DNA of 64,000 nt from an uncultured delta proteobacterium. GTDB taxonomy: Bacteria > Myxococcota_A > Polyangia > Polyangiales > B10-G4. How positions within the stretch are numbered: position 1 is the first letter of the stretch; every line of letters begins with the position of its first letter. Shown here one piece after another: positions 18,025 through 58,172 of this stretch. The translations under genes were made by a program, and so were the position numbers. Under the pieces are notes generated by a model that was not told where the DNA came from, made no database searches, and saw only the letters and a list, made by a program, of their open reading frames with translations. The stretch lies in the NCBI GenBank assembly GCA_963727445.1, contig CAVSGI010000017.1, positions 128,001 to 192,000 of the forward strand. The letters run 5' to 3'.

Positions 18025-19527
18025 TCAGAAGGCGGTCGGCTTCGTCGCGGGGGCGGGCGCGCTCTTGGGGCTGAGCCCGTAGTAGACGCCGCCGCCGATC
18101 AGAAAGCCGACGAACCAGGCATAGACGTAGATCTGGTCGAAGATGGCGGGGACCGAAGCGACCGCGCCGGCTTCGTGGAGAAAGCCCGGGACGTTGGGAA
18201 GGACCGCCAGCGCCAGGGCCAGCAGGGCGCGCCAGTTCCAGCCGTTTGCGTAGCTGTACTCGCCGTCCTTCCGGAAGAGCTCCTCGACGTTCATCTCCGT
18301 CTTGCGGATGAGGAAGTAGTCGGCGATGAGGATGCCGGCGATGGGGCCGAGGAGCGCCGAGTAGCCGATGAGCCAGACGAAGATGTAGCCGCCGGTGGAC
18401 TCGAGGAGCTTCCAGGGGAACATCGCGATGCCGAGGCCCGCGGTGATGTAGCCGCCCATCTTGAAGCTGATCTTCTCGGGGTTGATGTTCGAAAATCCGT
18501 TGGCCGGCGCGACGACGTTGGCGGCGAGGTTGGTGGTGAGGGTCGCGACCGCCAGGGCGAAGAGCGCGACCACGATGGACCAGCCGCCCATCTTTCCGAG
18601 GAGCGCCACCGGATCCCAGATGGCCTCGCCGTAGATGACGACGGTAGCCGAGGTGACCGCGACGCCGATGAAGGCGAAGAGCGCCATGGTCGGTGGAAGG
18701 CCCACGGCCTGGCCGAGCATCTGGTCCTTCTGCGTCTTGCAGTAGCGGGTGAAGTCCGGGATGTTCAGCGAGAGCGTCGCCCAGAAGCCCACCATCGCGG
18801 TGAGGCTCGGCGCGAAGACGCTCATGAACTGCCCTTCTTTTTCGCCGCCTTCCACGAACTGACTCGGCGTCGAGAGCATGGTGCCGAAGCCGCCCGCCTC
18901 GACGTAGGCCCAGACGAGCAGCGCGAGGCCCATGACGATCAAGAAGGGCGCGGCGTAGGTCTCGAGCCAGCGGATCGACTCGGTGCCCTTGGCGATGAAG
19001 TAGACGTGCAAGGCCCAGAAGGCGAGGAAACAGATCAGCTGCCAGAGGTCGATGCCGAGGAAGCCGATGGGGGTTCCGACGAACCAATCGCTCGAGACGG
19101 CGTTCAGGATGGTGTAGATGGCGGAGCCGCCGACCCAGGTCTGGATGCCGAACCAGCCGCAGGCGACGATGCCGCGAAGGAGCGCGGGCACGTTCGCCCC
19201 GACGGTGCCGAAGCTCGAACGGAGCAGCACCGGAAAGGGGATGCCGTGCTTGGTGCCGGCGTGGCCGACGAGCATCATCGGGATGAGCACGATGACGTTG
19301 CCGAGGAGCACCGTGAGCACCGCCTGCCACCACGCCATGCCCTGCTCGATCATCGACGCGGCGAGCATGTAGGTCGGGACGCAGACCACCATGCCCACCC
19401 AGAGGGCGGCGATGCAGGTCCACTTCCAGGTGCGCCCCTCCTCGGGGGTGGGTGCGAGATCGTCGTTGTAGAGGTGCGGGTCGGCGCCCTCGATCGGCAC
19501 CGGCTTGACGTCGGCGTGGGCGCTCAC
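18025..19527 (-). CDS. NCS1 family nucleobase:cation symporter (uracil/hydantoin-type)
   Basis: N.DLAP, ALWVGM, GIPFPVLLRSSFG, ACGWFGIQTW, WATLSLNIPDFTRY, PWKL. Confidence 0.95.
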   Translation of the reverse strand: MSAHADVKPVPIEGADPHLYNDDLAPTPEEGRTWKWTCIAALWVGMVVCVPTYMLAASMIEQGMAWWQAVLTVLLGNVIVLIPMMLVGHAGTKHGIPFPVLLRSSFGTVGANVPALLRGIVACGWFGIQTWVGGSAIYTILNAVSSDWFVGTPIGFLGIDLWQLICFLAFWALHVYFIAKGTESIRWLETYAAPFLIVMGLALLVWAYVEAGGFGTMLSTPSQFVEGGEKEGQFMSVFAPSLTAMVGFWATLSLNIPDFTRYCKTQKDQMLGQAVGLPPTMALFAFIGVAVTSATVVIYGEAIWDPVALLGKMGGWSIVVALFALAVATLTTNLAANVVAPANGFSNINPEKISFKMGGYITAGLGIAMFPWKLLESTGGYIFVWLIGYSALLGPIAGILIADYFLIRKTEMNVEELFRKDGEYSYANGWNWRALLALALAVLPNVPGFLHEAGAVASVPAIFDQIYVYAWFVGFLIGGGVYYGLSPKSAPAPATKPTAF

Positions 19528-19536
19528 CGTCCCCCC

Positions 19537-20935
19537 TCAGGCCTTTCCATCAGGGGCCTGCGATTTGCCGCGCGCCTTCGCGGTTGCCTCGAGACCACCT
19601 TCGACCCAGTCGGTGCCGGCGTTGATGCGCTCGTTCCAGGTGATGGACTCGGGCGCCTTTCGCTTCTCCACCATGGAGATGCACCCTTCGACCGGGCAGA
19701 CGAGCTGGCAGAGGTTGCAGCCGACGCACTCCTCCTCGTGTACGAAGGGGATGCGCGCGCCGGGCGTCCCGCCCCTCGCGGTGACGGGACGGTCGGGGAC
19801 GTTCTTCGGGAAGGCGACGTGGCCCCGCTTCTTCTTCTCCTCGTCGCTCATGCCGGGAATGTGGATGCACTGATGCGAGCCATCCATACAGGCCACGAAG
19901 CAGAGCTGGCAGCCGATGCACTTGTCCGGATCGATGTCGGCGACGACGTGATAGTTCAGGTCGAGGTTGCCCCAGTCCTTGATAGGCGGGGACCGCTTTT
20001 CCGACGAGGTCCATGGCCGACGCCATCCCCTTTTCGTCGAGGAAGTCGCCCAGGCCCTCGATCATGTCTTCGACGATGCGGTAGCCGTAGTGCATCACCG
20101 CCGTGCACACCTGCACCGAGGTCGAGCCGAGGGCCATGAACTCCGCCGCGTCCCGCCAGTTGGCGATGCCGCCGATGCCGCTGATCGGCTTCGGGAAGAC
20201 GTGCGCGACCTGCCCGAGCAGGTGCAGGGCGATGGGCTTGACCGCCGGGCCGCAGTAGCCGCCGTTCGACGAGGCGTCCCCGACGCGCGGCAGCGGCACC
20301 ATCTTGTCGAGGTCGACGCCCACGATGGACTTCACGGTGTTGATCAGGCTCACCGCATCGGCGCCCGCCTCGAGGGCCGCGACCGCGGGCTCGGTGATGT
20401 CGCCGATGTTGGGCGTGAGCTTGACGATGACCGGAATCTTCGCCTTCTCCATCACCCAGCCGACGATGGTCTTGAGCACCTCGGGCTCGGCGCCGACGGC
20501 GGAGCCCATACCGCGCTCGCACATCCCGTGCGGGCAGCCGAAGTTCAGCTCGATGAGATCGGAGCCGACGTCCTCGACCTTCTGGATGATCTCGTGCCAC
20601 TCCTCGCGGGTGTCGACCATCAGGGAGGCGATCAGCACGTTGTTCGGGTACTGCTTCTTCACCTCCTCCATCTCGCGGAGGTTCACGTCGAGGGGGCGGT
20701 CGGTGATGAGCTCGATGTTGTTGAGCCCCATCAGCTTGGTGTTGCCGTAGTCGACGCCGCCGAAGCGGCTCGAGACGTTCACGATGGGGTTGCCGAGGGT
20801 CTTCCACACGGCGCCGCCCCAGCCCGCGTCGAAGGCGCGCTTGACCTGATCACCGGTGTTGGTCGGAGGCGCGGAGGCGAGCCAGAAGGGGTTGGGGCTC
20901 TTCACCCCGCAGAAGTCGATGCTCAGGTCTGCCAT
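19537..20935 (-). CDS. preA: NAD-dependent dihydropyrimidine dehydrogenase subunit PreA, with a +1 frameshift at ~19981
   Basis: NPFWLASAPP, LNNIELI, ELNFGCPHGM, VKLTPN, SLINT; the C-terminal 2x[4Fe-4S] part (CIGCQLCFVAC, CVGCNLCQLVCP) continues in another frame after ...GCC TAT C AAG GAC TGG. Confidence 0.92.
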
Positions 20936-20952
20936 TCGTCCCTCTCCAATCC

Positions 20953-22278
20953 TCAGCTGAGCATCCGGGTGATCTCGCGGGCGGCGCGCTTGCCGTGCTC
21001 CGCGGCGTTGACGACTTCCTTGCCGCCGTTCACGCAGTCACCGCCGGCGAAGACCTTCGGGTTGCCGGTGCGGCAGGTCTCCTCGTCGACCTTCACCCTG
21101 CCCTTTTCGTCGAGCTCGACGCCCTCGAAGGCCTGAGCCAGCACGGTGAGGCGCGCCTGTCCAATGGCGAAGGCGACCGCGTCGCAGGCGAGGGTCTCGC
21201 TGGCGCCGTCCCCGGCCGTGCTCTCGACCTCGATGCCCACGATGGACCCGTCGTCACCGCGGACGACCTCGGCCACCCGCCGGTTCTCGATCAAGCGCAC
21301 GCCCTCCTTGCGGGCCGCGCTCATCTCGTGACGGTAGCCGCTCATCGCCTCCGCGGTCTTGCGGTAGACCATGTAGACGTCCGACACGCCGAGGAGGGCC
21401 AGCTCGCGCGCGATGTCGATCGCCGTGTTGCCACCGCCGATGATCGCGACGCTCGCGAAGCGGCTGAGGTCGAGGTTGTCGTCGCTCTTGATGCGCTCGA
21501 TGAGCGCCGTCGCGCCGTAGACCCCGGGGCCGTCCATGCCGTCCACGTCGAGGAAGTTGTCGGGACCGAGGCCGATGCCGATGAAGACGGCGTCGTAGTC
21601 CTCGAGGAGCGTCTCGGCGGAGACCTCGCCCTCCCGTGCCTCGCCGCCCACGACCGCGACCCCCGTCCGGAGCTCGATGCCGCCGAGCGAGAGGATGGCG
21701 TCGATCTCGTCGAGCGCATCCTCGGCCTTGAGCTTGTAGGGGGCGATGCCCAGCGTGTTGAGCCCGCCGGGGATCTTCTTCTGCTCGAAGATCACCGCGC
21801 TGTGCCCCTCGAGCGCGAGGTGGCCCGCGGCTGCGATGGACGCCGGCCCACCGCCGACGAGCGCGATCTTCTTGCCGGTGGAGGGCTTCTTGTTCTTCCC
21901 GATCAGCGCCGGGTCAGTGTCGAGCGCGACGGTGGTCGCGTAGCGCTGCAGTCGCCCGATGGCGATCGGCTCGCGGCCCCACTGGTTGTAAACGCAGTCA
22001 CCCGCGCAGAGCACCTCCACCGGACAGACGCGCGCGCAGGACGCGCCGAGCAGGTTGGACTCGAAGATGGTCCGCGCGGCGCCCTTGACGTTGTCGGTCG
22101 CGATCTTGTGGATGAAGGTCGGGATGTCGATCGACGTCGGGCACTTCTTGATGCACGGCGCGTCGACACAGTAGATGCAGCGGTTCGCCTCGGCGACGGC
22201 TTCGGCGTGGCTGTAGAGCGGCGCCTTGTCGCCGAGCTTCGACTCGAGCCGCTCTTTGGGAAGCGGGTAATCGGTCAT
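20953..22278 (-). CDS. preT: Dihydropyrimidine dehydrogenase subunit PreT (GltD-like Fe-S flavoprotein)
   Basis: EANRCIYCVDAPCIKKCP, CARVCPVEVLCAGDC, GGGPA, IGGGNTAID, FAGGD; ATG 22278 overlaps the upstream stop. Confidence 0.9.
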   Translation of the reverse strand: MTDYPLPKERLESKLGDKAPLYSHAEAVAEANRCIYCVDAPCIKKCPTSIDIPTFIHKIATDNVKGAARTIFESNLLGASCARVCPVEVLCAGDCVYNQWGREPIAIGRLQRYATTVALDTDPALIGKNKKPSTGKKIALVGGGPASIAAAGHLALEGHSAVIFEQKKIPGGLNTLGIAPYKLKAEDALDEIDAILSLGGIELRTGVAVVGGEAREGEVSAETLLEDYDAVFIGIGLGPDNFLDVDGMDGPGVYGATALIERIKSDDNLDLSRFASVAIIGGGNTAIDIARELALLGVSDVYMVYRKTAEAMSGYRHEMSAARKEGVRLIENRRVAEVVRGDDGSIVGIEVESTAGDGASETLACDAVAFAIGQARLTVLAQAFEGVELDEKGRVKVDEETCRTGNPKVFAGGDCVNGGKEVVNAAEHGKRAAREITRMLS

Positions 22279-23573
22279 CGTCCTGCCAGTGCGTCGAAGG
22301 ACTCGTCGAGGATGTTCAGTGCCTCGCCCAGGTCGTCCTTGGTGACGTTCAGCATCGGGCTGATGCGCAGCACGTTGCCGTGCAGGCCGCCCTTGCCGAT
22401 GAGAAGCTTGCGCTTCTTGGTCTCCTCGAAGAGCGCGCCCACCGCCTTGGCGTTCGGCGTGCGGTCGCCCTTGGTCTCGTCGACCACCAGCTCCACGGCC
22501 TGCATCAGTCCCATGCCGCGAACGTCGCCGACCATCTCGGGGTGCTTCTTCTGGATCTTCAGGAGACCCTCGCGGAGCTCCGCGCCCCGCTCCCGCGCGT
22601 TCCTCGGCAGGTCGTCGCGCTCGATGATGTCGAGGACGGCGCCTGCGGCCGCGGTGGAGACCGGGTTGCCGCCGAAGGTGGAGATGGTCGACTTGGTGAA
22701 GCTGTCGGCGACCACCGGCGTCGCCACGCAGGCGCCGAGGGGGAAGCCATTGGCGATGCCCTTGGCCATCGTCATGATCTCCGGCTCGACACCGTAGTTG
22801 TCGATGCCCCACATCTCGCCGGTACGACCGAAGCCGGTCTGCACCTCGTCGCTGATCATCACGCCGCCGTACTTGCGGACGATCTCGGCGGCGATCTCGA
22901 AGTACTCCTTCGGCGGGGTGATGAAGCCGCCCACGCCCTGGATGGGCTCCGCGAGCATGCCCGCGATGCGCCCGGTGGTCGTGGTCTGGATCAGCTCGTC
23001 GATGTCCTTGGCGCACTGAACGCCGCAGCTCGGATACTCGAGCTTGAAGGGGCAGCGGTAACAGTAGGGGCTCATGGCGTGCTTGATCGCCGCGACCTGC
23101 GTCGGGATGGCGCGATAGGGCGAGTGCGCCGTGAGCGACTGGGCGAGGAGCGACCGGCCCGAGTAGCCGTGGCGCAGCGCGACAAGCTCCTGATTGCCGG
23201 TGTAGACCTGCGCGAGGGCGACAGCGGTCTCGTCGGCTTCGGTCCCCGAGGCGACGAAGAACGCCTTGTCGAGGTTGCCGGGCGTCACCTTGGTGAGCTT
23301 CTCGGCGAGCTCCACCATCGGCACCGTCGGGTAGAGCGTGGAGACGTGGCTCAGCCGCCCGACCTGGGCGATCACCGCCGCGTTCACCTCTTCGTTGGCG
23401 TGGCCCACGGAGACCGTGAGGATCCCGCCGAAGAGGTCGAGGTACTCGTTGCCGTCGAGGTCACGGATCCGCGAGCCCTTGCCCTCGCTCAGGACGATGG
23501 GCTCCTGGTAGAAGTTGGCGACGGACGGAAACAGGTGCTTCGCGTGCTTTTCGCGAATCTCTTTGCTGTTCAT
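22275..23573 (-). CDS. Class-III PLP aminotransferase (probable beta-alanine aminotransferase)
   Basis: YLDLFGG, SGTEADE, AEPIQGVGG, SDEVQTGFGRTG, TMAKG, STFGGNP; pyrimidine-catabolism context. Confidence 0.88.
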   Translation of the reverse strand: MNSKEIREKHAKHLFPSVANFYQEPIVLSEGKGSRIRDLDGNEYLDLFGGILTVSVGHANEEVNAAVIAQVGRLSHVSTLYPTVPMVELAEKLTKVTPGNLDKAFFVASGTEADETAVALAQVYTGNQELVALRHGYSGRSLLAQSLTAHSPYRAIPTQVAAIKHAMSPYCYRCPFKLEYPSCGVQCAKDIDELIQTTTTGRIAGMLAEPIQGVGGFITPPKEYFEIAAEIVRKYGGVMISDEVQTGFGRTGEMWGIDNYGVEPEIMTMAKGIANGFPLGACVATPVVADSFTKSTISTFGGNPVSTAAAGAVLDIIERDDLPRNARERGAELREGLLKIQKKHPEMVGDVRGMGLMQAVELVVDETKGDRTPNAKAVGALFEETKKRKLLIGKGGLHGNVLRISPMLNVTKDDLGEALNILDESFDALAGR

Positions 23574-23650: not shown

Positions 23651-23679
23651 ACTTTGACCCGAGAACGGGTCTCCGTCCA
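23651..23679 (-). promoter_or_regulatory. Shared pyrimidine-catabolism promoter/operator, copy A
   Basis: TGGACG-GAGACCCGTTCTCGGGT-CAAAGT; contains palindrome GACCCG-N4-CGGGTC; recurs at 33423, 45869 and 58144. Confidence 0.75.
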
Positions 23680-23736: not shown

Positions 23737-25761
23737 TCAAAAGCCACCGCCCGGGACCGGCAGCGAGGTCCCGTCGAAATTGATGCCATTGTCTCGATAG
23801 ACGACGCGGTCGCTGAGGTCGGCCGGATCGATCGTCCCGAGTTGGCTGTTCACGCCGACGGGGTTGTCGGCGATGAGACCGTCGCGGATGGACACGGCAC
23901 CGGGGGAGACGAGCTGCAGCCCGGCGACCTCGTGATTCGAGGTGATGAAGCGCTCCATGTCGAGACCACCGGAGTCGAGCACCACGATGCCCATCCCGGC
24001 CCCGTTGAGCGCGTTGGCCGCGGTCGCTTCGACGCGCACGTCGGTGAGGGAGAGCGAGCCGCTCGGCCCGAGGAGCATGACGCCCGCTTCGGTGCTTCGA
24101 AGCACCTCGCAGCGGGTGCAGCTGAACGTCGCGCCGAGCTGCACCGAGACCCCGCGGCCGCCAGCGCCCGCCGATGTCGGCACGTTGTCCGTCACCACCG
24201 CATCCTCGACCGCGAGCCGCGTATCCGAATCGGTGGCGATCACGGCGCCGCCGATGCTGCCTGGGCTCTGGAGACGCCGAACCGTCACGTCCGCACCCAT
24301 GCGGACCTCCACCGACGCGGCGGCACCGATCATCCGTGAGAGCTCGGGCGCGAGGTCGAGAGTGGTCAGGTCGTCGACCTCCACCAGGGTGCCCGGATTG
24401 ATGGCCGCGATCGCGGCCCCCTTGGTGCCTCGCGTCAGGACGCGCTCCATGACGACGGACTCCGCGGAGTCGATGACGAAGCCGATCCCTCCGGCCATGT
24501 CGCTCAGCTGAGGTCGCACGTCCTGCAGGATGGTGTCCCGGAGTGTGACGTTCAGACCGAAGCCGACCATGGTGAAGGCAGCGCCGGTCGTGCGCGCGAG
24601 GTGGAGCCGCTCGGCGGTCAACGTGCCGCGCACGTTGAGCCCGATCCCGTAGCCGGTATCCCCCCGGAAGGCATCCGACTCGACGTCGCGGATGACGACC
24701 GTGTCGAGATCGCCGTTGGTTCCGCCGGAGAGGAAGAGCCCCGCGCTGTGCACCCGCTCGACCACGACGCGGAGCGCTTCGACGGTGCCCCCCGCGGCTG
24801 CAGCGATGCCGTTGCCGAGGCCCGCATCCGGGCGGTCCACGACGTCCGTGACCGCCACGTCTTCGACGCGCAACGAGCCGCCGCCGTTGATCCCGATCCC
24901 TGCCGCGACGCTCCGCTGGATCACACCCTGACGAATTTCGACGCGGCTCGTGTCGTTGATGAAGACGCCGAAGCCTACGTCCGTCGATTGGTTGTCGGTG
25001 TCGCGGATCGCGATCCGCTCGGCCACGACCGACGCCATCCCGGTGGCCGCCAGAGCGATGAGCGCGACGCGCACCTGCAGATCGCGGAGGTGGCACTCTC
25101 CATCCGACGCCCGGATGCCGGGGCGCAGGCCGGCGACCGTCAGGTTCGACAGAGACGATCCCGCGCCCATGAGCACGCCATGGGTCGACAGATCCCCGGC
25201 GGGGAGGTCGAGGACGGTCTCGGCGACACACGCCCCGACCAGGGCGACGTCGGCGGGGAGGTCGAAGGTCTCCGGATAGACGCCGACCGACACGGCGATG
25301 GTGTCGCCCGCCGTGGCCACCGCCACCGCCTCGGCGATCGTCCCGAAGGGAGCGCTGCGGCTTCCGTCGCCGCCCGTCTCCCCGGCGCGGACGTAGTGAA
25401 CGGTCGAATCGGCGGGCAGGTCGGCGGGCCAACCGTCGGCGGCGCAGCTCGTCCCGAGCGGCGCACAGCGCGCGTCCCCGGGGAAGCGAACCTGGTCGTC
25501 CGGGCAGCCCTCCCACGCGGCGGGCCACGGCTCACACGACTGTGCGCCGGCGACATCCAGAGGCGTCCATCCCGCGGGGCACTCGCCGAAGGAAGGAAGC
25601 GCAGGAGCCGCGGGGGGCGCTGGCGTGGTCGGCATGAAGACGGCCGAGTCCACGGCGCCGTCGGCAAGGCCGGTGTCGCCGGCGTCGATGATGGCGCCGT
25701 CGTCGCCGCAGGCCGCCACACATGACACGAGCGCGACGAGCGACCAGCGTAGGTGCTTCAC
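23737..25761 (-). CDS. Right-handed parallel beta-helix lipoprotein (DUF1565-like)
   Basis: Lipobox VAAC; YV...GDGS..APF.TI.EA....AGDTI.V..G.Y.E; repeated beta-helix turns; paralog of 33505..35553. Confidence 0.8.
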   Translation of the reverse strand: MKHLRWSLVALVSCVAACGDDGAIIDAGDTGLADGAVDSAVFMPTTPAPPAAPALPSFGECPAGWTPLDVAGAQSCEPWPAAWEGCPDDQVRFPGDARCAPLGTSCAADGWPADLPADSTVHYVRAGETGGDGSRSAPFGTIAEAVAVATAGDTIAVSVGVYPETFDLPADVALVGACVAETVLDLPAGDLSTHGVLMGAGSSLSNLTVAGLRPGIRASDGECHLRDLQVRVALIALAATGMASVVAERIAIRDTDNQSTDVGFGVFINDTSRVEIRQGVIQRSVAAGIGINGGGSLRVEDVAVTDVVDRPDAGLGNGIAAAAGGTVEALRVVVERVHSAGLFLSGGTNGDLDTVVIRDVESDAFRGDTGYGIGLNVRGTLTAERLHLARTTGAAFTMVGFGLNVTLRDTILQDVRPQLSDMAGGIGFVIDSAESVVMERVLTRGTKGAAIAAINPGTLVEVDDLTTLDLAPELSRMIGAAASVEVRMGADVTVRRLQSPGSIGGAVIATDSDTRLAVEDAVVTDNVPTSAGAGGRGVSVQLGATFSCTRCEVLRSTEAGVMLLGPSGSLSLTDVRVEATAANALNGAGMGIVVLDSGGLDMERFITSNHEVAGLQLVSPGAVSIRDGLIADNPVGVNSQLGTIDPADLSDRVVYRDNGINFDGTSLPVPGGGF

Positions 25762-25780
25762 CGGTGCATCGTACTCGATC

Positions 25781-25813
25781 GGGCACGGGCACGGGCACAA
25801 GCACGGGGCACGG
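25781..25813. repeat. Short GGGCAC hexamer tandem repeat (intergenic)
   Basis: gggcac gggcac gggcac aagcac ggggcac ggg. Confidence 0.7.
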
Positions 25814-25836
25814 GAGCCGGTTGCCGAGGCAACCGG

Positions 25837-27996: not shown

Positions 27997-28075
27997 GAGG
28001 GAGCGGTAGCCGGCCAAGGGAGGGTTTTCAAGTTGGCCGGGCCTCTGCAACTCCGTAATCTGTGCCGACGGCCCC

Positions 28076-33451: not shown

Positions 33452-33504
33452 GCGCCCCCCCCAAAGCCCCGACCCGAGGGGGCTGTCGGATGTATCATGG
33501 GGCG

Positions 33505-45868: not shown

Positions 45869-45897
45869 ACTTTGACCCGAGAACGGACGCGCGTCCA
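45869..45897 (-). promoter_or_regulatory. Shared pyrimidine-catabolism promoter/operator, copy B
   Basis: TGGACG-CGCGTCCGTTCTCGGGT-CAAAGT. Confidence 0.75.
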
Positions 45898-46673: not shown

Positions 46674-46729
46674 GCGCGGGAGCATGACGGACACGCCGGC
46701 CGGCGACAACCACGTCGCCATCTGCGCGC

Positions 46730-47585: not shown

Positions 47586-47682
47586 GCCCCCGAGCGAGCA
47601 AGCATCGGACCACCATCATCGGCTGAAGATCGCTGAGGTTCTCCAGCAGAAAGTGGCCACGGAAGAAGCCACCGCGGGCCGT

Positions 47683-49035: not shown

Positions 49036-50714
49036 GGCGAGGTCTCCATGACGGGGGCCACCGTGTCCTGATCGGCCACGCGGTAGAGGAAGGTCTCCGA
49101 GAGCGCGAGCCCGACCAACAGCTCGCGCACGTCGAAGTCGGCGCCGCGGAACTTACCGAGCAGGTCGTCGAGCGCGCAGGCGTCCTGCGCTTCGTCGCCG
49201 CGCCCGAAGGCCTGGGGAAACCAGCGCTCGGCGAAGCAGGTCTGGGTCTGCTGGCTCTCGATGAGCATGTGCGCCAGGTCGACGCCGTTTTCGAAGGCGC
49301 CGTCGTTGTCCGAGTCGGTGAGCTCGCCGGAGGCGTCGATGGGGATGTCGTTCTCGGTGGCGCGGAAGCGCCCCGCCGCGTCGAAGTTCTCGAAGGCGAA
49401 GCCCAGCGGGTCGAGCTGGCGGTGACAGGACGCGCAGTAGGGATCGGAGCGGTGCGCCGCGAAACGCTCGCGGGTGGTCGCGTCGGGGTCGGGGTCGGGC
49501 AGCGTGATGTCGAGGCCCGAGGGGACGTCGGGGATGACGCCGCACATCACGTTGCCGCGGATGAACATGCCGCGGTGAACCGGGGAGGTCTCGTAGGTCC
49601 GGGCGCGGGTGGCCAGGACGCCGCCCTGGGTCAACACCCCCGAGTGGTATTGCGCGTCGAGCTCGACGCGCTCGAAGCTGTCGCCGGCCGGGCCGCTGAC
49701 GCCGTAGTACGCGGCGAGGTCGGCGTTCATCATCGACCAGGGCGCCGTCATCAGCGTGATCCAGCTCCCGTCGCCCCGGAACACGACCTCCTCGACGAAG
49801 GCCTCGGTCTCCTGGCGGAAGAGATCGGGCGTGCCTTCGTTCCACTGGGGGAAGAGGGTCACATCCTTGTCGACGGTGTCGAGCTTGTCGAGCTCGAGGA
49901 AGCGCTGGAAGAAATGCTGCACCGTGGCGTGCGCCTGCGGATCGTCGAGCATGCGCCGCACGTGCGCTTCGACGCCGGCGTCGGTGTCGAGCTCCCCCGC
50001 CTCGGCGGCCGCGAAGAGCGCGTCGTCCGGCATGGTCTGCCAGAGAAAATAACTGAGGCGCGTGGCGAGCTGATAGCCGGTGAGACGGACGACCGCCTCG
50101 CCGCCGGTGGGCACGATCTCGACGCGATAGAGGAAGCTCGGCGATTGGAGCATGGCCTCGAGGACCATCTGGACGCCGACCTCCACGCCCCCATCGTCCC
50201 GGCCCGCTTCGTAGAGCGCATAGAGTCGATCCACCTCGCCGTCCTCGGCCGGCCGCCGATACGCGAGAGGCACCGTGCGCTCGATGAAGTCCAGGGCGCA
50301 GTCGTCGTCCCCCAGGGCCGCGCGATCGCAGCCGAGGGTCTCGTCGAAGACCGCGGCGTCGACCAGGCGCGCGGCGACGTCCTCGGCGGCGTACATGTAC
50401 TGCTCGGCGAGGAGCGGCGTCACGAGGCGCGCATCGGCGCTGAGGACGCCGCGCTCGTTGTCGACCAGGCGCGCCGCCGGCTCGCTGGTGTCGCCGAAGA
50501 GATCCCTCAGGGTGTTGTCGTATTCGGTGACGGTCAGGCGCCGGAGCGGCGCCCGGCCGGGGAAGAGAGCGTCGCCCTCGCAGACGACCGGGGTGGGCCC
50601 GGTGGGATCAGGGCCCGGACCACCGCCGGGGGAGATCCCCGGGTCCGAGATGAGTCCCTGGCAGCCCGAAAGGACCGCCAAAAGGAGCCAGGACAGCTTG
50701 CTCCGCCCGCTCAA
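49032..50714 (-). CDS. DUF1592/DUF1588/DUF1595/DUF1587/DUF1585 multi-domain lipoprotein with heme-type CxxCH
   Basis: RRLT..EYDNT.RDL, LQSPSFLYR, LATRLSYFLW..MPD, TSPVHRG, CASCH..LDPLGFAFENFD; TTG start after GGAGG. Confidence 0.9.
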   Translation of the reverse strand: MSGRSKLSWLLLAVLSGCQGLISDPGISPGGGPGPDPTGPTPVVCEGDALFPGRAPLRRLTVTEYDNTLRDLFGDTSEPAARLVDNERGVLSADARLVTPLLAEQYMYAAEDVAARLVDAAVFDETLGCDRAALGDDDCALDFIERTVPLAYRRPAEDGEVDRLYALYEAGRDDGGVEVGVQMVLEAMLQSPSFLYRVEIVPTGGEAVVRLTGYQLATRLSYFLWQTMPDDALFAAAEAGELDTDAGVEAHVRRMLDDPQAHATVQHFFQRFLELDKLDTVDKDVTLFPQWNEGTPDLFRQETEAFVEEVVFRGDGSWITLMTAPWSMMNADLAAYYGVSGPAGDSFERVELDAQYHSGVLTQGGVLATRARTYETSPVHRGMFIRGNVMCGVIPDVPSGLDITLPDPDPDATTRERFAAHRSDPYCASCHRQLDPLGFAFENFDAAGRFRATENDIPIDASGELTDSDNDGAFENGVDLAHMLIESQQTQTCFAERWFPQAFGRGDEAQDACALDDLLGKFRGADFDVRELLVGLALSETFLYRVADQDTVAPVMETSP

Positions 50715-50810
50715 ATTTTCCTCCCGCCGCACCGAGTGTTCGAAGGTCATCTTAGCACGCGAGACTCCCATGAGCGTCCGCGCTAAGGACTGCTAAGGTA
50801 GGGCCCGCCG

Positions 50811-51482
50811 ATGGGGAAAGAAGCCAAACATATCTGGGTGGTAGAGGATGATCCGGGCATCGCCAGCCAGCTGGTCCGGGGCCTTCGCAGGGCTGGTTTG
50901 ATGGTCTCCCTCTCCACCCAGGACCTCGACGTCCGGGAGTGTCTGAGGGCCGAGCCGGACCTGGTGATCCTCGACCTGATGCTCCCCGACAGGAGCGGCT
51001 TCGAGATCCTCGCCGAAATCCGCGAGCGCTCCTCACTGCCGGTGATCGTGGTGACCGCGCGGGGCAATCTCGAGGACCGCCTCAAGGCCTTCGACCTCGG
51101 CGCTCAGGACTACGTCACCAAGCCCTTCTTCGTCGAAGAGGTGCTGGCGCGGGTGCGGGTGCGCATCGGCGGCGAGACCGAGCGCGACATCATCGAGTTC
51201 GGCGGCGTGCGCATGGACCGGACCGCTCGCGAGCTCACCAAAGACGGCGAGAGCCTCGCGCTCACCCCCTACGAGTACGAGCTCCTCGAGTACCTCGTGG
51301 AACGCGCCGGACGCGCCATCTCCCGCGACGTGCTGTCCAAACAGTTGGTCCGCGGCAACCCCAACGCCAACGCCCGCAGCGTCGACAGCCACGTCGCCAA
51401 GCTGCGCAAGAAGCTGGGCGACGAGGCCTCGGAGCACATCCGCACCATTCGCGGGCTGGGCTACCGCTTCGACCCAGAATGA
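50811..51482 (+). CDS. OmpR-family response regulator
   Basis: VVEDD, ILDLMLP, VTAR, DYVTKPF, VDSHVAKLRKKL, TIRGLGY. Confidence 0.95.
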   Translation: MGKEAKHIWVVEDDPGIASQLVRGLRRAGLMVSLSTQDLDVRECLRAEPDLVILDLMLPDRSGFEILAEIRERSSLPVIVVTARGNLEDRLKAFDLGAQDYVTKPFFVEEVLARVRVRIGGETERDIIEFGGVRMDRTARELTKDGESLALTPYEYELLEYLVERAGRAISRDVLSKQLVRGNPNANARSVDSHVAKLRKKLGDEASEHIRTIRGLGYRFDPE

Positions 51483-52531
51483 GCCGGATGCAGATCGGCC
51501 GCTCGATATCGGTTCGCATCCTGATCGTCACCAGCGCCTGCGTGCTCTTCAGCGCGGTGCTCCTGAAGATCAGCGGCGCCGACCCCTTCGAGAGCGTGAC
51601 CGGCGGGGGTCTTCTCGTCCTGTTGCTCCTGACCACCATGGTCCTGAGCCACGTGGCGATCATCCAGCCGCTGAACCGTCGCTTCGAGAAGCTCACCAAG
51701 CTCGCCGGCAGCGTCGGAAAGGCGGAGGAGACGGTGGAGCCCGAGGTGACCCACGACGAGATCGGCCAGGTCTCGCGGGCCCTGGCTGGCGCGCACCGGC
51801 GCATGCTCGATCACGAGCGCTTGCTCAGCGCGCAGTACCAGGCGCTCCGCATGAAGCAGATCAACGTGGCCCACGATCTGCGGACGCCGCTCACCTCGCT
51901 CCTGATGTCGCTCGAGAACGCCCGCGACGCCGCGATGAGCGCGAACGAGGATCCCGCGCCATCGATCCGCGACGCCATGGCCGAAGCGCTCTACATGACG
52001 TCCCTGGTGCAGAACCTCCGAATCGCCAGCCGCATGGACGCGGGCTTCGCGAGCCTCGGCGCCCGCGCGCCCCTCGATCTGACGTCGCTGGTGCAGCGGG
52101 TGGCGAACCGCTTCCGCCTCCTCGCCAAGGGCGGCGGCACGGAGATCCACGTCGCCTATCCCGATGAGCCGGTCATGGCCCTCGGCGACGACACGATGAT
52201 CGAGCAGCTGGTCACCAACCTGGTGCAGAACTCCCTGACCTATGGAGGCGGCATCGATCAGCAGATCATCATCAACCTCGACGCCGAGGACGGCCGCTTC
52301 ACCCTCGACGTCCTCGACGAGGGCCCGGGGATCAGCCCCGACGCCCTCGAGCTCATCACCGAGCGCTGGGTGCGCGGCGCCGCCGGCAAGGGACGCAGCA
52401 AGTCGGGACAGGGCCTCGGCCTGGCGATCGTGAGCGAGGTCGCCGCGGTCCACGACTGGACGCTGAAGCTCGAAAATCGCGAGGAGCGGGGCCTGAGGGC
52501 GCGCGTCGAAGGCGCCACCACCGCGAGCTGA
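51479..52531 (+). CDS. Sensor histidine kinase (2 TM, HAMP)
   Basis: AHDLRTPL, NLVQNS, DEGPGI, GQGLGL; ATGA overlap with the response regulator. Confidence 0.92.
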   Translation: MSRMQIGRSISVRILIVTSACVLFSAVLLKISGADPFESVTGGGLLVLLLLTTMVLSHVAIIQPLNRRFEKLTKLAGSVGKAEETVEPEVTHDEIGQVSRALAGAHRRMLDHERLLSAQYQALRMKQINVAHDLRTPLTSLLMSLENARDAAMSANEDPAPSIRDAMAEALYMTSLVQNLRIASRMDAGFASLGARAPLDLTSLVQRVANRFRLLAKGGGTEIHVAYPDEPVMALGDDTMIEQLVTNLVQNSLTYGGGIDQQIIINLDAEDGRFTLDVLDEGPGISPDALELITERWVRGAAGKGRSKSGQGLGLAIVSEVAAVHDWTLKLENREERGLRARVEGATTAS

Positions 52532-52534
52532 CGC

Positions 52535-53125
52535 TCAACTCGAGCCGTGCGCGTCGACCACGGCCTTCATCGCCGCGAAGCCTTCCTCGATCTTGGCGAA
52601 GAAAGAGCTCCGGTGCGCGACCACGGTCAGGTTCGGATGCTTCGACCACAGCGCGAGGAGCGCGCGGTCGATCCGGCTCGCCTCGACGTCGTCCTCGATG
52701 CGGGTGGGGTTGTTGCCCTCGATGCTCATCCCGCCGACCGCCGCGCTCTCGAAGAAGATGACGGCGTCGTAGCGAGCGAGCTCGGCCTCGAGGGTCGTGC
52801 CCATGGCCTCGAAGAAGTCGCCGTCCACGGGCCAGTAGGCGGCGCCATCGACCGTACCGCGATCACAGAGGAGGACCCGCTGTGGATGGAGGCTCGCGTG
52901 CAGGTCCTCCATGTTCTGCTGGACGTGGAAGATCGCCCGCTGCGCATGGCGACGGGCGTCGGTGGCCGTGGTGCGAGGAAAGCCGCCGCTGAAGAGCATG
53001 GTCGCCGCCTCGGGGACCGCGGCCACACGGTCCCCCAGCTCGCGTCGGAAGAGGTCGAGGGCGGTGCTCTTGCCACCACCGGGCCCCCCGGTGATGGCAA
53101 TACGGCATCGCGTGTGCGTGCTCAT
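52535..53125 (-). CDS. AAA_28/NadR-like P-loop NTPase
   Basis: ITGGPGGGKST, VPEAAT, LCDRG. Confidence 0.85.
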   Translation of the reverse strand: MSTHTRCRIAITGGPGGGKSTALDLFRRELGDRVAAVPEAATMLFSGGFPRTTATDARRHAQRAIFHVQQNMEDLHASLHPQRVLLCDRGTVDGAAYWPVDGDFFEAMGTTLEAELARYDAVIFFESAAVGGMSIEGNNPTRIEDDVEASRIDRALLALWSKHPNLTVVAHRSSFFAKIEEGFAAMKAVVDAHGSS

Positions 53126-53140
53126 GGCCGGGCGCGTGGC

Positions 53141-54970
53141 TCAGCGCCGGCGGCGCCGCACGAGGGCGAGGCCGATCAGGATGCCGAAGAGCACCGTGGG
53201 GGGCGCGGTCTCGGAGCGGGACACCGAGCAGCCACCGCCGGGCTCGACGGGGGGCGGCGGTGGCGGTGTGCACATGGCCACGGTGCCGTCGTCGGAGAGC
53301 ACACACTCGAAGGCGCCTGAGCACGGAGCGTCGGAGCTGCACTCCTGGGTGCATACCCCACCGGTGCTGCAGATGCCGGAGATGCAATCGTCATCCACGG
53401 TGCAGGCGTCACCCACGACGCCGTTGGCCGGCGCGCAGATGCTGGAGTCGCCCACGGCCGTGCAGTCGAAGCCTTCGGGGCAGGGGTTTTCGTCGCTGCA
53501 GAACGTGGTGCACCAGCTGACGCCGGTGCGCGTCGCGCAGAACGTGTCGTCCATGCAGTCGCCGTTTTCGATGCAACCGCCGCCGATGCTGGCGAGGGCG
53601 CCGCGGACGCAGAGCCCGTCGCGACAATGGAAGCGATCGCCCCTGCCGCAATCGGAGTCGGTGGTGCACGCATGCGAGCAGTAGGAGAGCCCGGCCTCGC
53701 TCAGACATTCGCCCGAGGCGCACGCGTCGCTACCGTCGCAGGGCTCGCCGAGCCCGCGCGCGCCCACGACGATGTGTTCGTCGACGCAGCCGCCGCATGC
53801 GCCCATCGCCGCCGCGCAGACCTCGCCGCCGAGGCACATGCCGTCGCCACCGCGGCAGGGCGTGAGGCAACGCTGGCGGCCGTCGCCGGGGTCTGCGCAG
53901 AAGAGGCTCGCGCACTCGAGGTCATCGGTGCAGGGCGCGTCGACGCCGAGAGGCTCCGGCCGTGCGTCGGGCAGGGGCACGCAGAGGCCTTCGCATCCGC
54001 TGGTCCGCGCGCAGTACAGACCGGTCGCGCAGCTGAGCTCCGGGCGGAGTGGATCGCACTCGGTGGTGCAGCGGCGCCCGGCAGGGGTGTCGGCGCAGTT
54101 GTTGCCGAGGCACTCGTCGTCGAGGGCGCACTCGGAGCCGAGGGGAAGGCAGGTCTCGTCGACCTCGCCGTTGCAGTCGTTGTCGTATCCGTCGCAGCGC
54201 TCCTCGCCGTCGTTGAGGCAGGAGCCCGAGTCGCCCACCACCATGTCGATGAGATCGAGGTAGGTGTCGACGCGGTTGGCGCCGGCGAGGCCGCCGGTGC
54301 CGCAGCCGGTGCCGCCGAAGGAGGTGATGGCGACGATCTCGTTCGTCTCGCTGAGGATGATCGGCCCGCCGCTGTCGCCCTGACAGGTGAGGTCGCCGGT
54401 GTAGAGCACGTTGCCGTCGATGTAGCGGATACGGCCGGTGGTGCTGTATTTGGTGCCGGCGTCTGCTCCCGGCGTCCGGCCGAAGCCGATGGCGGTGACG
54501 TCGTCGCCCACGAGCTCGCTCACGTCGCCGCGGTAGACGCCGATGGGATCGATGCCGCTCACCCCGGTGGCGAGGGTGATGAGCGCGACGTCGTTGCCGA
54601 CCAGGCCCCGGAGCCGTGCGTCGTAGGATCCCGGCGTGGTGTGAACCTCGATGGCGTTGAAGCTCTGGCTCACGTGATTGATCGAGTCGCCGATGCCGAT
54701 GGTGAATGCGGCGGCGGGGTCGGGCGACGTGGCGTTCTCCTCCTGCACGCAGTGCTTCGCCGTGAGGATCACGCGGGGGGCGATCAGCGAGCCGCTGCAC
54801 ATCCCGCCGAGGCGGCGGTTGTACAGGACGATGACCGCCGGGTTGTGGTCGAGGACCCCGTCGACGATGGGCTCGGCCCGCGAGCCGACCGAGCCATCAC
54901 CGGTGGGCGCTGTGCAGCTCGCACCCGAGAGAAGAAGAGAAATAGCCCCCAAGAACGAAATCCACCGCAT
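53141..54970 (-). CDS. Trypsin-like S1 serine protease with Cys-rich repeats and MYXO-CTERM-like tail
   Basis: CSGSLIAP.VILTAKHC, DVAL, CQGDSGGP; CDGYDNDCNG.VDE; GGGCSV...TM...RRRR. Confidence 0.92.
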   Translation of the reverse strand: MRWISFLGAISLLLSGASCTAPTGDGSVGSRAEPIVDGVLDHNPAVIVLYNRRLGGMCSGSLIAPRVILTAKHCVQEENATSPDPAAAFTIGIGDSINHVSQSFNAIEVHTTPGSYDARLRGLVGNDVALITLATGVSGIDPIGVYRGDVSELVGDDVTAIGFGRTPGADAGTKYSTTGRIRYIDGNVLYTGDLTCQGDSGGPIILSETNEIVAITSFGGTGCGTGGLAGANRVDTYLDLIDMVVGDSGSCLNDGEERCDGYDNDCNGEVDETCLPLGSECALDDECLGNNCADTPAGRRCTTECDPLRPELSCATGLYCARTSGCEGLCVPLPDARPEPLGVDAPCTDDLECASLFCADPGDGRQRCLTPCRGGDGMCLGGEVCAAAMGACGGCVDEHIVVGARGLGEPCDGSDACASGECLSEAGLSYCSHACTTDSDCGRGDRFHCRDGLCVRGALASIGGGCIENGDCMDDTFCATRTGVSWCTTFCSDENPCPEGFDCTAVGDSSICAPANGVVGDACTVDDDCISGICSTGGVCTQECSSDAPCSGAFECVLSDDGTVAMCTPPPPPPVEPGGGCSVSRSETAPPTVLFGILIGLALVRRRRR

Positions 54971-55148
54971 CACCACCTCCGAGAACCCCACGCACCGGAT
55001 AGAGAGGGCACCCACGAGGGAGCACGTCCACCCACCCTGCTTGCGCTGCGTGGCTTTAGGACACGGCGGAGGAGCGGTAAAGAATGCCCCCCTTCAGGGG
55101 CAATGAGACGGCAACAGATCGCTTCTCGATCCCACGAAGCCGTGGAGA

Positions 55149-56126
55149 TCAGTGTCCGCGGCGCCTGCGCAGAATCAGGACGGAGAATGTGAGAAAAGAC
55201 ACGAGCGCCCGCCACGGCGCGCGCTGCGCAGCGGCCCCGACGGTGCAGGCAACGCAGCCCGATCCATGGGCCACGATGTTTCCGGTGCCGCCGTCGCCCG
55301 CATCGCCCGCGCCGCCATCGGGCGCGGCGGACGCGGCGCATTGGCCCGTGTCGTCGCAATGGCCGCTGAGGCAGCGCCGATCGCGATCGCAGACCGCCCC
55401 CACGCCGCCGGCCATCGAGCACTCGGTGCCGGCGCAGTAGCTGTCGGGCTCGCAGTCCTCGTCGACGGAGCACGTCGCACAGGAGGTGTCATCCTGGCAC
55501 ACGCCGAAATCGCAGGCGACGGTCGCGGGGCCGCAGACGCCCGTCGCGTCGCAGAGCTGATCCGTTCGAACCCCGTCCGCGCAAGAGGCCATGCCGCAAG
55601 AGGCGCCCGCCGGGGCCGCGGACCAGCCGTCAGGCAGGGTGTCGGGCACGCAGAGCTCGCAGGGCACATCGGGGTTGGGCTCGCCGTCGTAGCGGCAGGT
55701 GCCGTCGATCAGGCAGGCGCCGGCGCGGATGGGGTTCTCGCAGACGTCATCGGTGTCGTTGCAGCGATCGATGGTGCACGAAAGTCCGTCGACGCAACCC
55801 CTCCGCGGTCCCGCCATGCAGAGCCCGGCTCCGTCGCAGACGTCTCCGTCGGTGCAGAACGCGCCGTCGGTGCACTCGGTGCCCATGGGGCGAGGCGGAT
55901 GGTCACAGGTGTCTGTGGCCTCGTTGCAGACGTCGTCGGTGCACGCGACTCCGTCGAGACAATCGCGCGGTTGCCCGACGCAGGTGAGGGTCGTGTCGCA
56001 TCGATCCGTGACGGTGCACCACTGCCCGTCGTCGCACGCGTCACCGGCGGCCATGCACTGTGCGCGCGCAACCCCGGCGTTCAGCGCGCTGGCACAAAGC
56101 ACGACGAGCAAGAGTGAAGAGCGCAC
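55149..56126 (-). CDS. Cys-rich repeat surface protein with MYXO-CTERM-like tail
   Basis: C.DG..CT..D.C repeats; GSGC..C.V + TM + RRRR. Confidence 0.8.
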   Translation of the reverse strand: MRSSLLLVVLCASALNAGVARAQCMAAGDACDDGQWCTVTDRCDTTLTCVGQPRDCLDGVACTDDVCNEATDTCDHPPRPMGTECTDGAFCTDGDVCDGAGLCMAGPRRGCVDGLSCTIDRCNDTDDVCENPIRAGACLIDGTCRYDGEPNPDVPCELCVPDTLPDGWSAAPAGASCGMASCADGVRTDQLCDATGVCGPATVACDFGVCQDDTSCATCSVDEDCEPDSYCAGTECSMAGGVGAVCDRDRRCLSGHCDDTGQCAASAAPDGGAGDAGDGGTGNIVAHGSGCVACTVGAAAQRAPWRALVSFLTFSVLILRRRRGH

Positions 56127-56174
56127 CGAACGATGGTGGCGCGCGAGGCTGTCACCGAGCAAGTTGCGCCACGC

Positions 56175-56555
56175 TCACCGGCAGGTCAGGAGCTCGCAGT
56201 CCCAGACCTGACCGTCGGAGCACACGGGCGTGCAATCCACCTCGCCGCAGGAACCGCAGGTCATGCAGCAAACCGCGCCGGGGGTATCGAGGCAGGAAGG
56301 CTCGCACTGACCCGGCGCCGTGGTCGACCCGTCCCCGGTCGTCGAGCCATCGGTGGAGACCGAGGTGTCGGCGACGGCGCCATCGCCCACGGCGGTATCG
56401 CCGACACCACCATCGAAAGATCCGTCGGCGGAGCCGTCGATCGTGACGGAAGAATCCCCGCCCGACGACCGCGGCCCCCGGTATCCATTGCCACAGCCGA
56501 ACAGCAGGAAAGCGACCGCGAGGACGAGGCCACCTTTGAGCGCAGTAGAAGTCAT
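56175..56555 (-). CDS. Small Cys-rich lipoprotein
   Basis: Lipobox LFGC, D/G/S/T linker, 10-Cys C-terminal domain. Confidence 0.72.
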   Translation of the reverse strand: MTSTALKGGLVLAVAFLLFGCGNGYRGPRSSGGDSSVTIDGSADGSFDGGVGDTAVGDGAVADTSVSTDGSTTGDGSTTAPGQCEPSCLDTPGAVCCMTCGSCGEVDCTPVCSDGQVWDCELLTCR

Positions 56556-56626
56556 GTCAGCTCCAGAAGGTTCGCGAGGTGCTACGCCACCCTAGCACGC
56601 CACCTTCCTTCGCGACCCGGCTCGCT

Positions 56627-58108
56627 TCAGCTCATCCAGTTGGCGTCGGGCTGCAAGCTCCACTTGGTCGTGAGCTTCTGCGTGCGGGACCAGAGCTCGA
56701 CGCCGCCAGCGCCGGTCATGTCGCCCTGGCCGAAGCGCGAGGACTTGGCGCCGCCGAAGCTGAAGGGCTCGCGGGGGACAGGGACGCCGACGTTGACGCC
56801 CACCATGCCGGTGGGGACGCGATCGGCGACGTAGCGCGCGACGTCCCCGCGGCTGGTGAAGACGCTGGCGGCGTTGCCGTAGGGCGTCGTGTCCTGCAGG
56901 GCGAGGGCCTCATCGAGCGTCTTGACGCGGACGATGGTGAGCACCGGGCCGAAGAGCTCCTTGGTGGTGCACTCCATCTCCATCGAGGCGTGGTCGATGA
57001 TGGTGGGGGCGAGCCAGTTTCCCTTTTCATAGCCCGAGGGCGCCGCGGCGCCGCGGCCGTCGAGGCGGATCTTCGCGCCTTCGTCGGCAGCCTTCGCGAT
57101 GTCGGCGTTCAGGCGGTCGAGCGCCGCCGGATCGATGATGGCGCCCATGTCGGTGCCGAGCTGGACCTTCCCGGCCTTTTCGATGATCGCATCGATCAAG
57201 TGATCGACGTTACCCACGGCGATCATCAGGCTGGCCGCCATGCAGCGCTGGCCGGCGCAGCCGATGAAGGAGCTGACCACGCCGTCGACGGTCACGTCCT
57301 TCTCGGCGTCGGGGACCACGATGAGGTGGTTCTTCGCGCCGCCGAGGCAGAGGGCGCGACGATCCTGCTTGGTGACGCGCTCGTAGACGGCGCGCGCGAC
57401 CGGCGTCGAGCCGACGAAGCCGAGCGCCTGGACGTCCGGATGGTCGGCCAGGGCCTCCACCGCGTCGCGGCCGCCGTGGATGATGGAGAAGACGCCGGGC
57501 GGAAAGCCCGCCTCGACCATCAGCTCGCCGCTCATGTGCGCCGTCAGCGGCACCTTCTCGGACGGCTTGAGGATGAAGGCGTTGCCGAGGGTGACGGCGA
57601 TCGGGTACTGCCACATGGGCACCATCGCCGGGAAGTTGAAGGGCGTGATGCCGGCGACGACGCCGAGCGGGAGGCGACGGGTCTCGCAGGTGACGCCGCG
57701 GCTCACCTCGAGGATGTTGCCCACGTCCATGTTCTGAAGGCTGAGGGCGTACTCGACGATCTCCACGCCCTTGAGGACACCGGCCTTCGCCTCGGCCACC
57801 GTCTTGCCGGACTCGATCGCGGCCGAGTTGCTCAGCCGGTCGATGTGCTCGAGGACGAGCTCGCGGAAACGGAAGAGCACCTGGGTGCGCTCCTTGATCG
57901 GCACCGCGCGCCAGGCGACCTGCGCCTCCTTCGCGGCAGCGACCGCAGGCGCCACGTCGGCGGCCTTGCTCACCGGGATCGTCCCGATGACTTCGTTCGT
58001 GTATGGCGTGACGACGTCCATCCGCTCGCCGCTCTGGGCGTCGCGCCACTCACCGGCGACGAGGTTTTTGGCGACGATGGGCGTGTTCGGAAGCTCTACC
58101 AAGGACAT
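56627..58108 (-). CDS. mmsA: CoA-acylating (methyl)malonate-semialdehyde dehydrogenase
   Basis: ITPFNFPAMVP, KPSE, FVGST, GGAKNH, CAGQRCMA, ELFGP, GMVGVNVGVPVP. Confidence 0.93.
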   Translation of the reverse strand: MSLVELPNTPIVAKNLVAGEWRDAQSGERMDVVTPYTNEVIGTIPVSKAADVAPAVAAAKEAQVAWRAVPIKERTQVLFRFRELVLEHIDRLSNSAAIESGKTVAEAKAGVLKGVEIVEYALSLQNMDVGNILEVSRGVTCETRRLPLGVVAGITPFNFPAMVPMWQYPIAVTLGNAFILKPSEKVPLTAHMSGELMVEAGFPPGVFSIIHGGRDAVEALADHPDVQALGFVGSTPVARAVYERVTKQDRRALCLGGAKNHLIVVPDAEKDVTVDGVVSSFIGCAGQRCMAASLMIAVGNVDHLIDAIIEKAGKVQLGTDMGAIIDPAALDRLNADIAKAADEGAKIRLDGRGAAAPSGYEKGNWLAPTIIDHASMEMECTTKELFGPVLTIVRVKTLDEALALQDTTPYGNAASVFTSRGDVARYVADRVPTGMVGVNVGVPVPREPFSFGGAKSSRFGQGDMTGAGGVELWSRTQKLTTKWSLQPDANWMS

Positions 58109-58143
58109 GATTTCCCCACTGACTCTCTAGAGACGAAGCGGGC

Positions 58144-58172
58144 AATCTGACCCGAGAACGGCGGGCGCGCCA
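58144..58172 (-). promoter_or_regulatory. Shared pyrimidine-catabolism promoter/operator, copy C
   Basis: TGGCGC-GCCCGCCGTTCTCGGGT-CAGATT. Confidence 0.7.

Follow-up and report, generated by a model that had tools for sequence, protein, structure and literature searches.

A reductive pyrimidine catabolic pathway in four co-oriented blocks with similar promoter-like sequences: a likely case of an operon turning into a regulon in an uncultured member of the Polyangiales

The genome assembly of an uncultured member of the Polyangiales (GCA_963727445.1; 9.47 Mb, 86% complete) encodes seven genes for reductive pyrimidine catabolism within 64,000 nucleotides of contig C17 (CAVSGI010000017.1), a stretch referred to here as the window. 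They form four blocks, all of them on the minus strand, as a first-pass annotation of this DNA had claimed. Block 1 is mmsA (56627-58108), which encodes a coenzyme A (CoA)-acylating (methyl)malonate-semialdehyde dehydrogenase (TIGR01722, 502 bits against a cut-off of 448.5). Block 2 is bup (44968-45840), for a nitrilase-family, PydC-like beta-ureidopropionase (PF00795), and block 3 is hydA (31997-33391), for dihydropyrimidinase (TIGR02033, 609 bits; cut-off, 393). Block 4 is headed by a class III aminotransferase gene (22275-23573; PF00202), followed by preT (20953-22278; PF14691 and PF07992) and the adjoining preA (19537-20935; PRK08318, 521 bits; cut-off, 335), which encode the flavin adenine dinucleotide/iron-sulfur and flavin mononucleotide subunits of dihydropyrimidine dehydrogenase, respectively, and by the gene for an NCS1 nucleobase:cation symporter (18025-19527; TIGR00800, 393 bits; cut-off, 353). 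The pathway genes are spread across ∼40 kb in these four units, with gaps between blocks, from block 4 upward, of 8,424, 11,577, and 10,787 bp and start-to-start distances of 9.8, 12.4, and 12.3 kb. Each of the seven is present in a single copy in the genome, the remaining matches having <35% identity.

The PreT/PreA dehydrogenase, dihydropyrimidinase, and malonate-semialdehyde dehydrogenase of the Pyd pathway were all identified by family models. The best matches of Bup in the PDB are fly CG3027 and beta-ureidopropionase (E values of 9e−61 to 1e−54), its score is well under the cut-off of the AguB model, and its closest matches include Byssovorax, Sorangium, and one Planctomycetota bin. By family, best PDB matches, and adjacency to hydA in relatives, bup is the predicted beta-ureidopropionase gene. 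The aminotransferase scored above the cut-off of no NCBIfam model and matched generic omega-aminotransferases in the PDB; its substrate is likely beta-alanine, assigned from gene context alone. NCS1 would take up uracil and thymine, PreTA, HydA, and Bup would convert uracil to beta-alanine, and the aminotransferase and MmsA would carry the product on to acetyl-CoA, following the chemistry described for the reductive pathway (PMC7332683). The preA gene has an apparent one-base frameshift near position 19980 that places a second, C-terminal ferredoxin (iron-sulfur) domain in another frame, a feature missing from the first-pass annotation. This is likely an assembly error because preA is intact in 7/7 relatives checked and 20 of the 139 tested genes of the assembly show apparent frameshifts (6 of the 20 were called with queries from a relative whose own genes are broken in places). 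A further apparent frameshift lies at 46730-47585, and we treat broken genes across this assembly as likely assembly errors. In four DNA sequencing runs with a low share of this organism, no piece among the matches listed spans a junction or the preA frameshift, and no RNA run containing the organism was among the sequencing runs listed.

A sigma70-like element of the form T(G/C)GACG-like-N17-CAnnnT lies 28 to 77 nt before the start codon of the first gene of every block, both in the window and in G001, a sister species and the one further member of the family in our comparison (8/8 heads). In the window, these elements are TGGCGC-N17-CAGATT before mmsA (58144-58172, 35 nt before ATG) and TGGACG-N17-CAAAGT before bup (45869-45897, 28 nt), hydA (33423-33451, 31 nt), and the aminotransferase gene (23651-23679, 77 nt), all on the minus strand. 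The mmsA, bup, and aminotransferase elements share the spacer CCGTTCTCGGGT, while hydA has a different one. TGGACG-N17-CAAAGT occurs three times in the 9.47-Mb genome (0.23 expected), always at these block heads, and zero times or once at other spacings. The spacer word CCGTTCTCGGGTCA likewise occurs three times, at block heads only, and has one exact copy in G001, before bup. The pattern TGG-N3-N17-CARAKT, written post hoc from the sites, gave four matches in the window, one per head, compared to 0.59 in shuffled sequence. A profile built from G001 alone ranked the four sites of the window 1, 2, 35, and 275 of 18.9 million positions, the block 4 element being first. The hydA element fits the shared profile least well (leave-one-out rank of 102 of 18.9 million). 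A scorer blind to the shared spacer chose the same element, including the −10 hexamer, at all four heads. Pattern and profile support the earlier suggestion of a similar promoter-like element at each block.

The general promoter signal of the genome peaks at a spacer of 17 to 18 and includes CAnnnT, the form TTGAC..CA...T having its peak at 17. A sigma54 promoter was rejected by eye against the consensus because the GC at −12 is missing. The profile scan of the genome gave no clear fifth member of a wider regulon, and the element was not found at the salvage genes pdp, PNP-cdd, and upp. We found nothing to support the proposed link of this locus to nucleic-acid scavenging.

The arrangement of these genes in relatives was assessed by hydA searches of the order, first of 41 genomes and later of 401, from which 46 loci were retrieved. 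Seventeen of these, with identities of at least 66% for hydA and at least 70% for the aminotransferase, come from six other families and were used to define the compact state. The bup-hydA gap is 6 to 169 bp in all 15 selected loci that contain bup, and the hydA-aminotransferase gap is 6 to 116 bp in 16/17, with one exception of 1.9 kb. Since the two pairs adjoin in these relatives, both splits are derived. In a quick tree of hydA, the two split species are sisters (support of 99) inside a mostly compact group. The four co-oriented blocks mostly retain the order of the compact relatives, and the claim that gene order was kept through the split is supported. The remaining loci have other gene orders, and nine have hydA only.

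The position of mmsA in the ancestral arrangement is less regular. Contiguous mmsA-bup is common, but with another mmsA subfamily (about 40% identity). The full order from mmsA to NCS1 that the first-pass annotation had predicted occurs in two relatives, where mmsA belongs to a distant subfamily and the gap is 0.9 to 1.9 kb. The window mmsA falls in a clade with relatives at 68 to 86% identity (FastTree), and in six relatives mmsA of this type lies 0.2 kb before hydA, 0.7, 3.0, or 11.6 kb before bup, divergently, or on another contig. The mmsA junction is evidently older, by these comparisons, and is not established as an operon within the same mmsA clade. Adjacency in relatives together with single-copy genes near each other and in order, the signs of a split operon, was found for bup-hydA and hydA-aminotransferase and not for mmsA-bup. 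The idea that an ancestral cluster was pulled apart therefore stands for bup-hydA-aminotransferase-preT-preA-(NCS1), whose bup-hydA and hydA-aminotransferase pairs are contiguous in relatives as anticipated, and only in part for mmsA, whose clade is variably placed and whose contiguity with bup belongs to the other subfamily.

In G001, mmsA, bup, and hydA are co-oriented on one contig with gaps of 3.4 and 8.6 kb (4.9 and 9.5 kb from start to start), and block 4 is on a separate contig, which would put it 6 kb or more away if the two contigs join. G001 is split at the same junctions as the window with other genes in between, at a coding DNA identity of 82 to 87%. The genes that fill its junctions include a radical SAM gene (82% match on contig C6 of the window genome), a hybrid kinase, and TPR, SnoaL, and DUF1585/1501 genes. 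Its 3.4-kb mmsA-bup fill has only a Cys-rich family in common with the corresponding stretch of the window, at 44% identity and not as the best reciprocal match. The same junctions with different genes show that the fill has undergone turnover since the divergence of these species. The ends of the two G001 contigs carry two paralogous genes (L018:6291-7136 and L001:76-1668) between hydA and the aminotransferase gene, in which a Flp pilin-like N terminus is fused to long, differing C termini; they resemble polymorphic secreted proteins. Metagenome and genome scans found no third member of the family.

The genome has a high G+C content and expanded kinase, beta-helix, and DUF1592 families and, with Byssovorax and Sorangium among the closest bup matches, is likely that of a myxobacterium. 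A survey of ∼800 kb from four relatives with our own gene caller gave 72 operon-like pairs with clear homologues here. Forty-four pairs are adjacent, 6 are within 2 kb, 6 are stretched in order over 2 to 25 kb (2 of them the pyrimidine pairs), 4 are near and inverted, and 12 are far apart. For comparison, E. coli has 11 near-but-split pairs among 400 (PMC1480536). Two further clusters are stretched with their order kept: a fatty-acid-type cluster (C9:36931-50554) with 7.3 kb inside, including a DUF1592/1552-like pair, and a four-gene run over 35 kb (C21:380786-415559). Among 4,487 upstream regions, the only nonparalogous three-gene set within 60 kb with a common rare 13-mer is found at these block heads. 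Stretched pairs are therefore habitual in this genome, which cannot be said of the shared promoter trio. This habit is in line with the fast gene turnover of myxobacteria (PMC8538405). Stretching by promoter copying as a genome-wide habit was considered and rejected: 35 near pairs were found where 20.6 were expected, most of them involving paralogues or single words, with no second trio.

The DNA between the blocks carries a beta-helix protein, a prolyl oligopeptidase, and a Ser/Thr kinase (23737-31984; Pfam); another beta-helix protein, VWA, patatin, and pirin proteins, unknown genes, an insertion sequence (IS) end, and a truncated transposase-like open reading frame (ORF) (33490-44433); and a cupin, DUF1552/DUF1592 proteins, a two-component pair, AAA_28, a trypsin-like protease, and a Cys-rich secreted protein (45930-56555). 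Close homologues of several fill genes, among them the prolyl oligopeptidase (79% DNA identity) and the Ser/Thr kinase (63%), lie on other contigs of G001, and the intervening genes mostly have a third-codon-position G+C content (GC3) of 0.85 to 0.93 and host-like codon scores. A foreign origin was rejected on this composition and on the close homologues elsewhere in G001, which argue that the fill is mostly resident, mobile gene content and not a foreign island.

Its only lower-GC stretch, at 42.1 to 44.9 kb, holds mobile-element remnants. At 42100-44433 there are a 113-nt piece with exact copies on two other contigs (the IS end), an orphan ORF, and the truncated ORF, which has four 60% paralogues and is HUH/REP-associated transposase-like by eye, with no Pfam match. 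Behind mmsA, on the same strand, the Cys-rich secreted protein family (55149-56555) is present in both species. Two same-strand genes (56175-56555 and 55149-56054) follow mmsA closely, and the first terminator-like site is at 55102; the Cys-rich family may share the mmsA transcript, and the exclusion of intervening genes from coexpression may fail at this point. Just upstream of the mmsA element, 58279-58539 contains direct and inverted copies of a 36- to 47-nt repeat, and this intergenic stretch has 448 blastn matches elsewhere in the genome, as in a repetitive extragenic palindrome-like family. Three tandem 105-nt copies at 13022-13336 have 34 matches elsewhere, and a 31-nt piece of them recurs at 58590-58620.

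On this evidence, the seven genes probably trace back to a compact bup-hydA-aminotransferase-preT-preA-NCS1 operon that had mmsA close by, and they now form four blocks, each behind a similar sigma70-like sequence. In the ancestor of the genus, internal promoters of one type would have arisen before hydA and before the aminotransferase gene, probably as copies of an mmsA-type promoter. The mmsA promoter is weakly suggested as the donor because the hexamer type fits the mmsA promoters of relatives (TGG..-N17-CA in 3/4 scored relatives of the same mmsA clade) and not the bup promoters of compact relatives (TTGAG..TAC in 8/9, from two families). If the promoters came before the insertions, the junctions would thereby have been freed to take up genes moving about the expanding genome. 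With promoters so alike, all four blocks would be similarly active, and the promoter-like sequences likely keep the blocks expressed together, an operon likely turning into a regulon. The bup and aminotransferase elements of the window are identical at 35/46 nt, compared to 26/46 (bup) and 32/46 (aminotransferase) with their own counterparts in G001; copying, conversion, or coevolution with a factor would each yield this likeness. Upstream of bup in the compact relatives L005, L229, L231, L233, L234, L006, and L239, TTGAG-like-N17/18-TAC.. is followed ∼7 nt later by TTCG and by a G-rich run that could fold into a 5′ hairpin, a possible leader element.

Several points weigh against this history. 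The elements are promoters by resemblance alone, and a strict E. coli-type sigma70 scan gave nothing there. The core pattern is not rare, since a loose form of it gives the top promoter call in 134 of the 4,039 upstream regions, and the spacer is not constant over the eight heads, being absent at hydA in the window and at the aminotransferase gene in G001. Relatives show that the mmsA-bup junction was open and variable beforehand. In another family, nine loci have hydA with the other six genes absent from the stretch examined, so dispersal recurs in the order. Contigs C423 and C66 of G001 are unjoined, with no overlap of their ends. Order-kept stretching, in a milder form, is seen in 4 of the 70 other operon-like pairs at 2 to 25 kb, plus one at 25.4 kb, and therefore no special cause is needed for stretching.

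Of the features of a regulon, a shared cis element was found (the hexamer pair at 8/8 heads, the spacer at only some), and a common regulator was not. No orthologue of RutR/PydR was found in the 86% complete genome, where TIGR03613 scored at most 54.5 against a cut-off of 368 and PF08362 had no match, and control by such a protein was rejected because neither the orthologue nor a RutR-like C-terminal domain was found there. No regulator is conserved beside the compact operons, the widest sharing in the 18 loci being between two close kin, and 67 scanned of 87 flanking proteins included one AraC. The window has no Rfam match. Three explanations of control were weighed, namely, a factor that binds the spacer, constitutive promoters, and nucleotide sensing, and all are compatible with the split history.

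A dedicated, putative transcription factor might bind the CCGTTCTCGGGT spacer between −35 and −10 and make the four blocks a classical repressor or activator regulon, which we regard as unlikely. The spacer 14-mer is found in the genome at three block heads only, is exact before bup in G001 although coding DNA is just 82 to 87% identical, and contains a short inverted repeat, CCG-N4-CGG. The genome also has 24 weak TetR-type matches, one of them at 60351-60956, but that protein scores 41.7 against the RutR cut-off of 368, and its gene is coupled to a di-iron oxidase gene. Moreover, the spacer is absent at hydA here, at the aminotransferase gene in G001, and before pathway genes of other families in the loci examined. 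Its absence at those two heads makes common descent, with a putative regulator perhaps making use of the sequence, a likelier explanation of the shared spacer than a strict operator. The TetR gene and its partner, which is AurF/R2-like, occupy 60351-61899, and the TetR protein is not a RutR orthologue.

An explanation that we also hold to be improbable is that the elements are ordinary weak housekeeping promoters from copying events and that the blocks are constitutive, near each other only through local rearrangements. It is favored by the place of CAnnnT hexamers in the general promoter signal of the genome, by the like stretching of other clusters, such as that on C9, and by the loss of most coexpression in dead operons of E. 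coli (PMC1480536). However, the bup spacer has stayed identical between the two species, which is unexpected of neutral DNA at such a distance, and there is no other such promoter trio in the genome.

The predicted starts suggest a third explanation, in which promoters that must start with a pyrimidine fire only when UTP and CTP (uridine and cytidine triphosphate) are plentiful and so coordinate the blocks without an operator. We consider this regulator-free sensing quite doubtful, and its pyrimidine start windows are a lead, not a result. Transcription preferentially starts at position 7 after the −10 hexamer, with a strong preference for a purine at that position (PMC5730371). Positions 7 to 9 are all pyrimidine at 4/4 heads of the window, as judged from predicted starts. 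Among 51 promoter regions of pathway genes examined in relatives, these positions are pyrimidine only in 14 of the 22 that scored well (24/41 at a looser cut), compared to a background of 142/755 (19%) in the window genome and 12/51 (24%) in other genes of the relatives. Outside this set of relatives, the loose cut gave 9/33 for high-GC loci and 9/56 for low-GC loci. The absence of a RutR-like domain from the 86% complete genome and of a conserved neighboring regulator fits such sensing, as does the predicted fold of the hydA leader, in which a start at G in position 5 covers the ribosome site (−13.2 kcal) and a start at position 7 leaves it weakly folded (−6.3 kcal).

Against this, only 1/4 heads of G001 is pyrimidine only, and the background rises to 36/116 (31%) among the best-scored promoters. 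When kin were collapsed to 18 family-by-gene groups (8 with a majority and 3 with half), a round 9/18 gave P = 0.003 against 19% and P = 0.07 against 31%. The pattern was spotted by eye before counting, the start positions are predictions, pdp, PNP-cdd, and upp do not have it, and the conserved TTCG may act as an operator or form the base of a 5′ hairpin. The start windows could mean UTP/CTP sensing. It is a doubtful, if possible, reading that pyrimidine-catabolic promoters across the order are built for a UTP/CTP start and act as a regulator-free switch for excess, the mirror image of pyrC/pyrBI control. The whole switch would be ∼40 bases long, and therefore its copying before single genes would, on the same doubtful reading, have let an operon become a regulon without a transcription factor. 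If true, this would be a catabolic use of nucleotide-sensing initiation, of which a limited literature search found no case.

Tandem amplification of the whole operon with differential gene loss would account at once for the promoter copies and the co-orientation, with one promoter per block at a start-to-start spacing (9.8 to 12.4 kb) near the combined ∼9.3 kb of the seven genes, but it is highly improbable given intervening DNA without convincing remnants of pathway genes (only 21- to 69-nt matches or protein E values of >0.003), the spacing of 4.9 and 9.5 kb in G001, and the fact that random loss need not preserve order.

Compared to described Pyd clusters (PydA1/A2 or PreT/PreA, PydB, PydC, PydD, and malonate-semialdehyde dehydrogenase; PMC7332683), the window has the same enzyme set, a split dehydrogenase, a hydantoinase-type dihydropyrimidinase, a ureidopropionase, an aminotransferase, and a malonate-semialdehyde dehydrogenase, with an NCS1 transporter in addition. 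Unlike those clusters, its genes extend over 40 kb in four units, its ureidopropionase is of the nitrilase type, and no PydR/RutR orthologue was found. The pyrimidine-rich predicted start windows and the hydA leader hairpin are a possible parallel to the initiating-nucleoside triphosphate and start-site control of pyrC, pyrD, and pyrBI in E. coli (PMC6524683). High CTP or UTP lowers the expression of those genes, which are biosynthetic, whereas the window pathway is catabolic; therefore, a catabolic regulon would need the opposite sign.

The pathway and the death of operons by insertion are already known, and we found no published account of this particular case in the literature, with subscription journals and supplements outside the scope of the search. 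Split trp operons likewise distribute one pathway over several suboperons with internal order kept; the available text on them (PMC2395257) gives no account of pieces ∼10 kb apart in order or of a repeated promoter, as seen in the window. In operon death by insertion as described for E. coli, a conserved pair is likewise split while its genes remain close, a kind that makes up 11 of the 66 dead pairs there (Price et al. 2006, PMC1480536). In contrast to those pairs, the window opens two or three successive junctions of one pathway with order kept, the fill differs between sisters, and each piece has a similar promoter-like sequence. To that picture the locus adds a clean snapshot: an arrangement compact in six families, the same junctions opened in a sister pair, different fill, and a similar promoter-like sequence for each piece. 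The source of new promoters, a step that is usually hidden, thereby becomes directly testable with short reporters.

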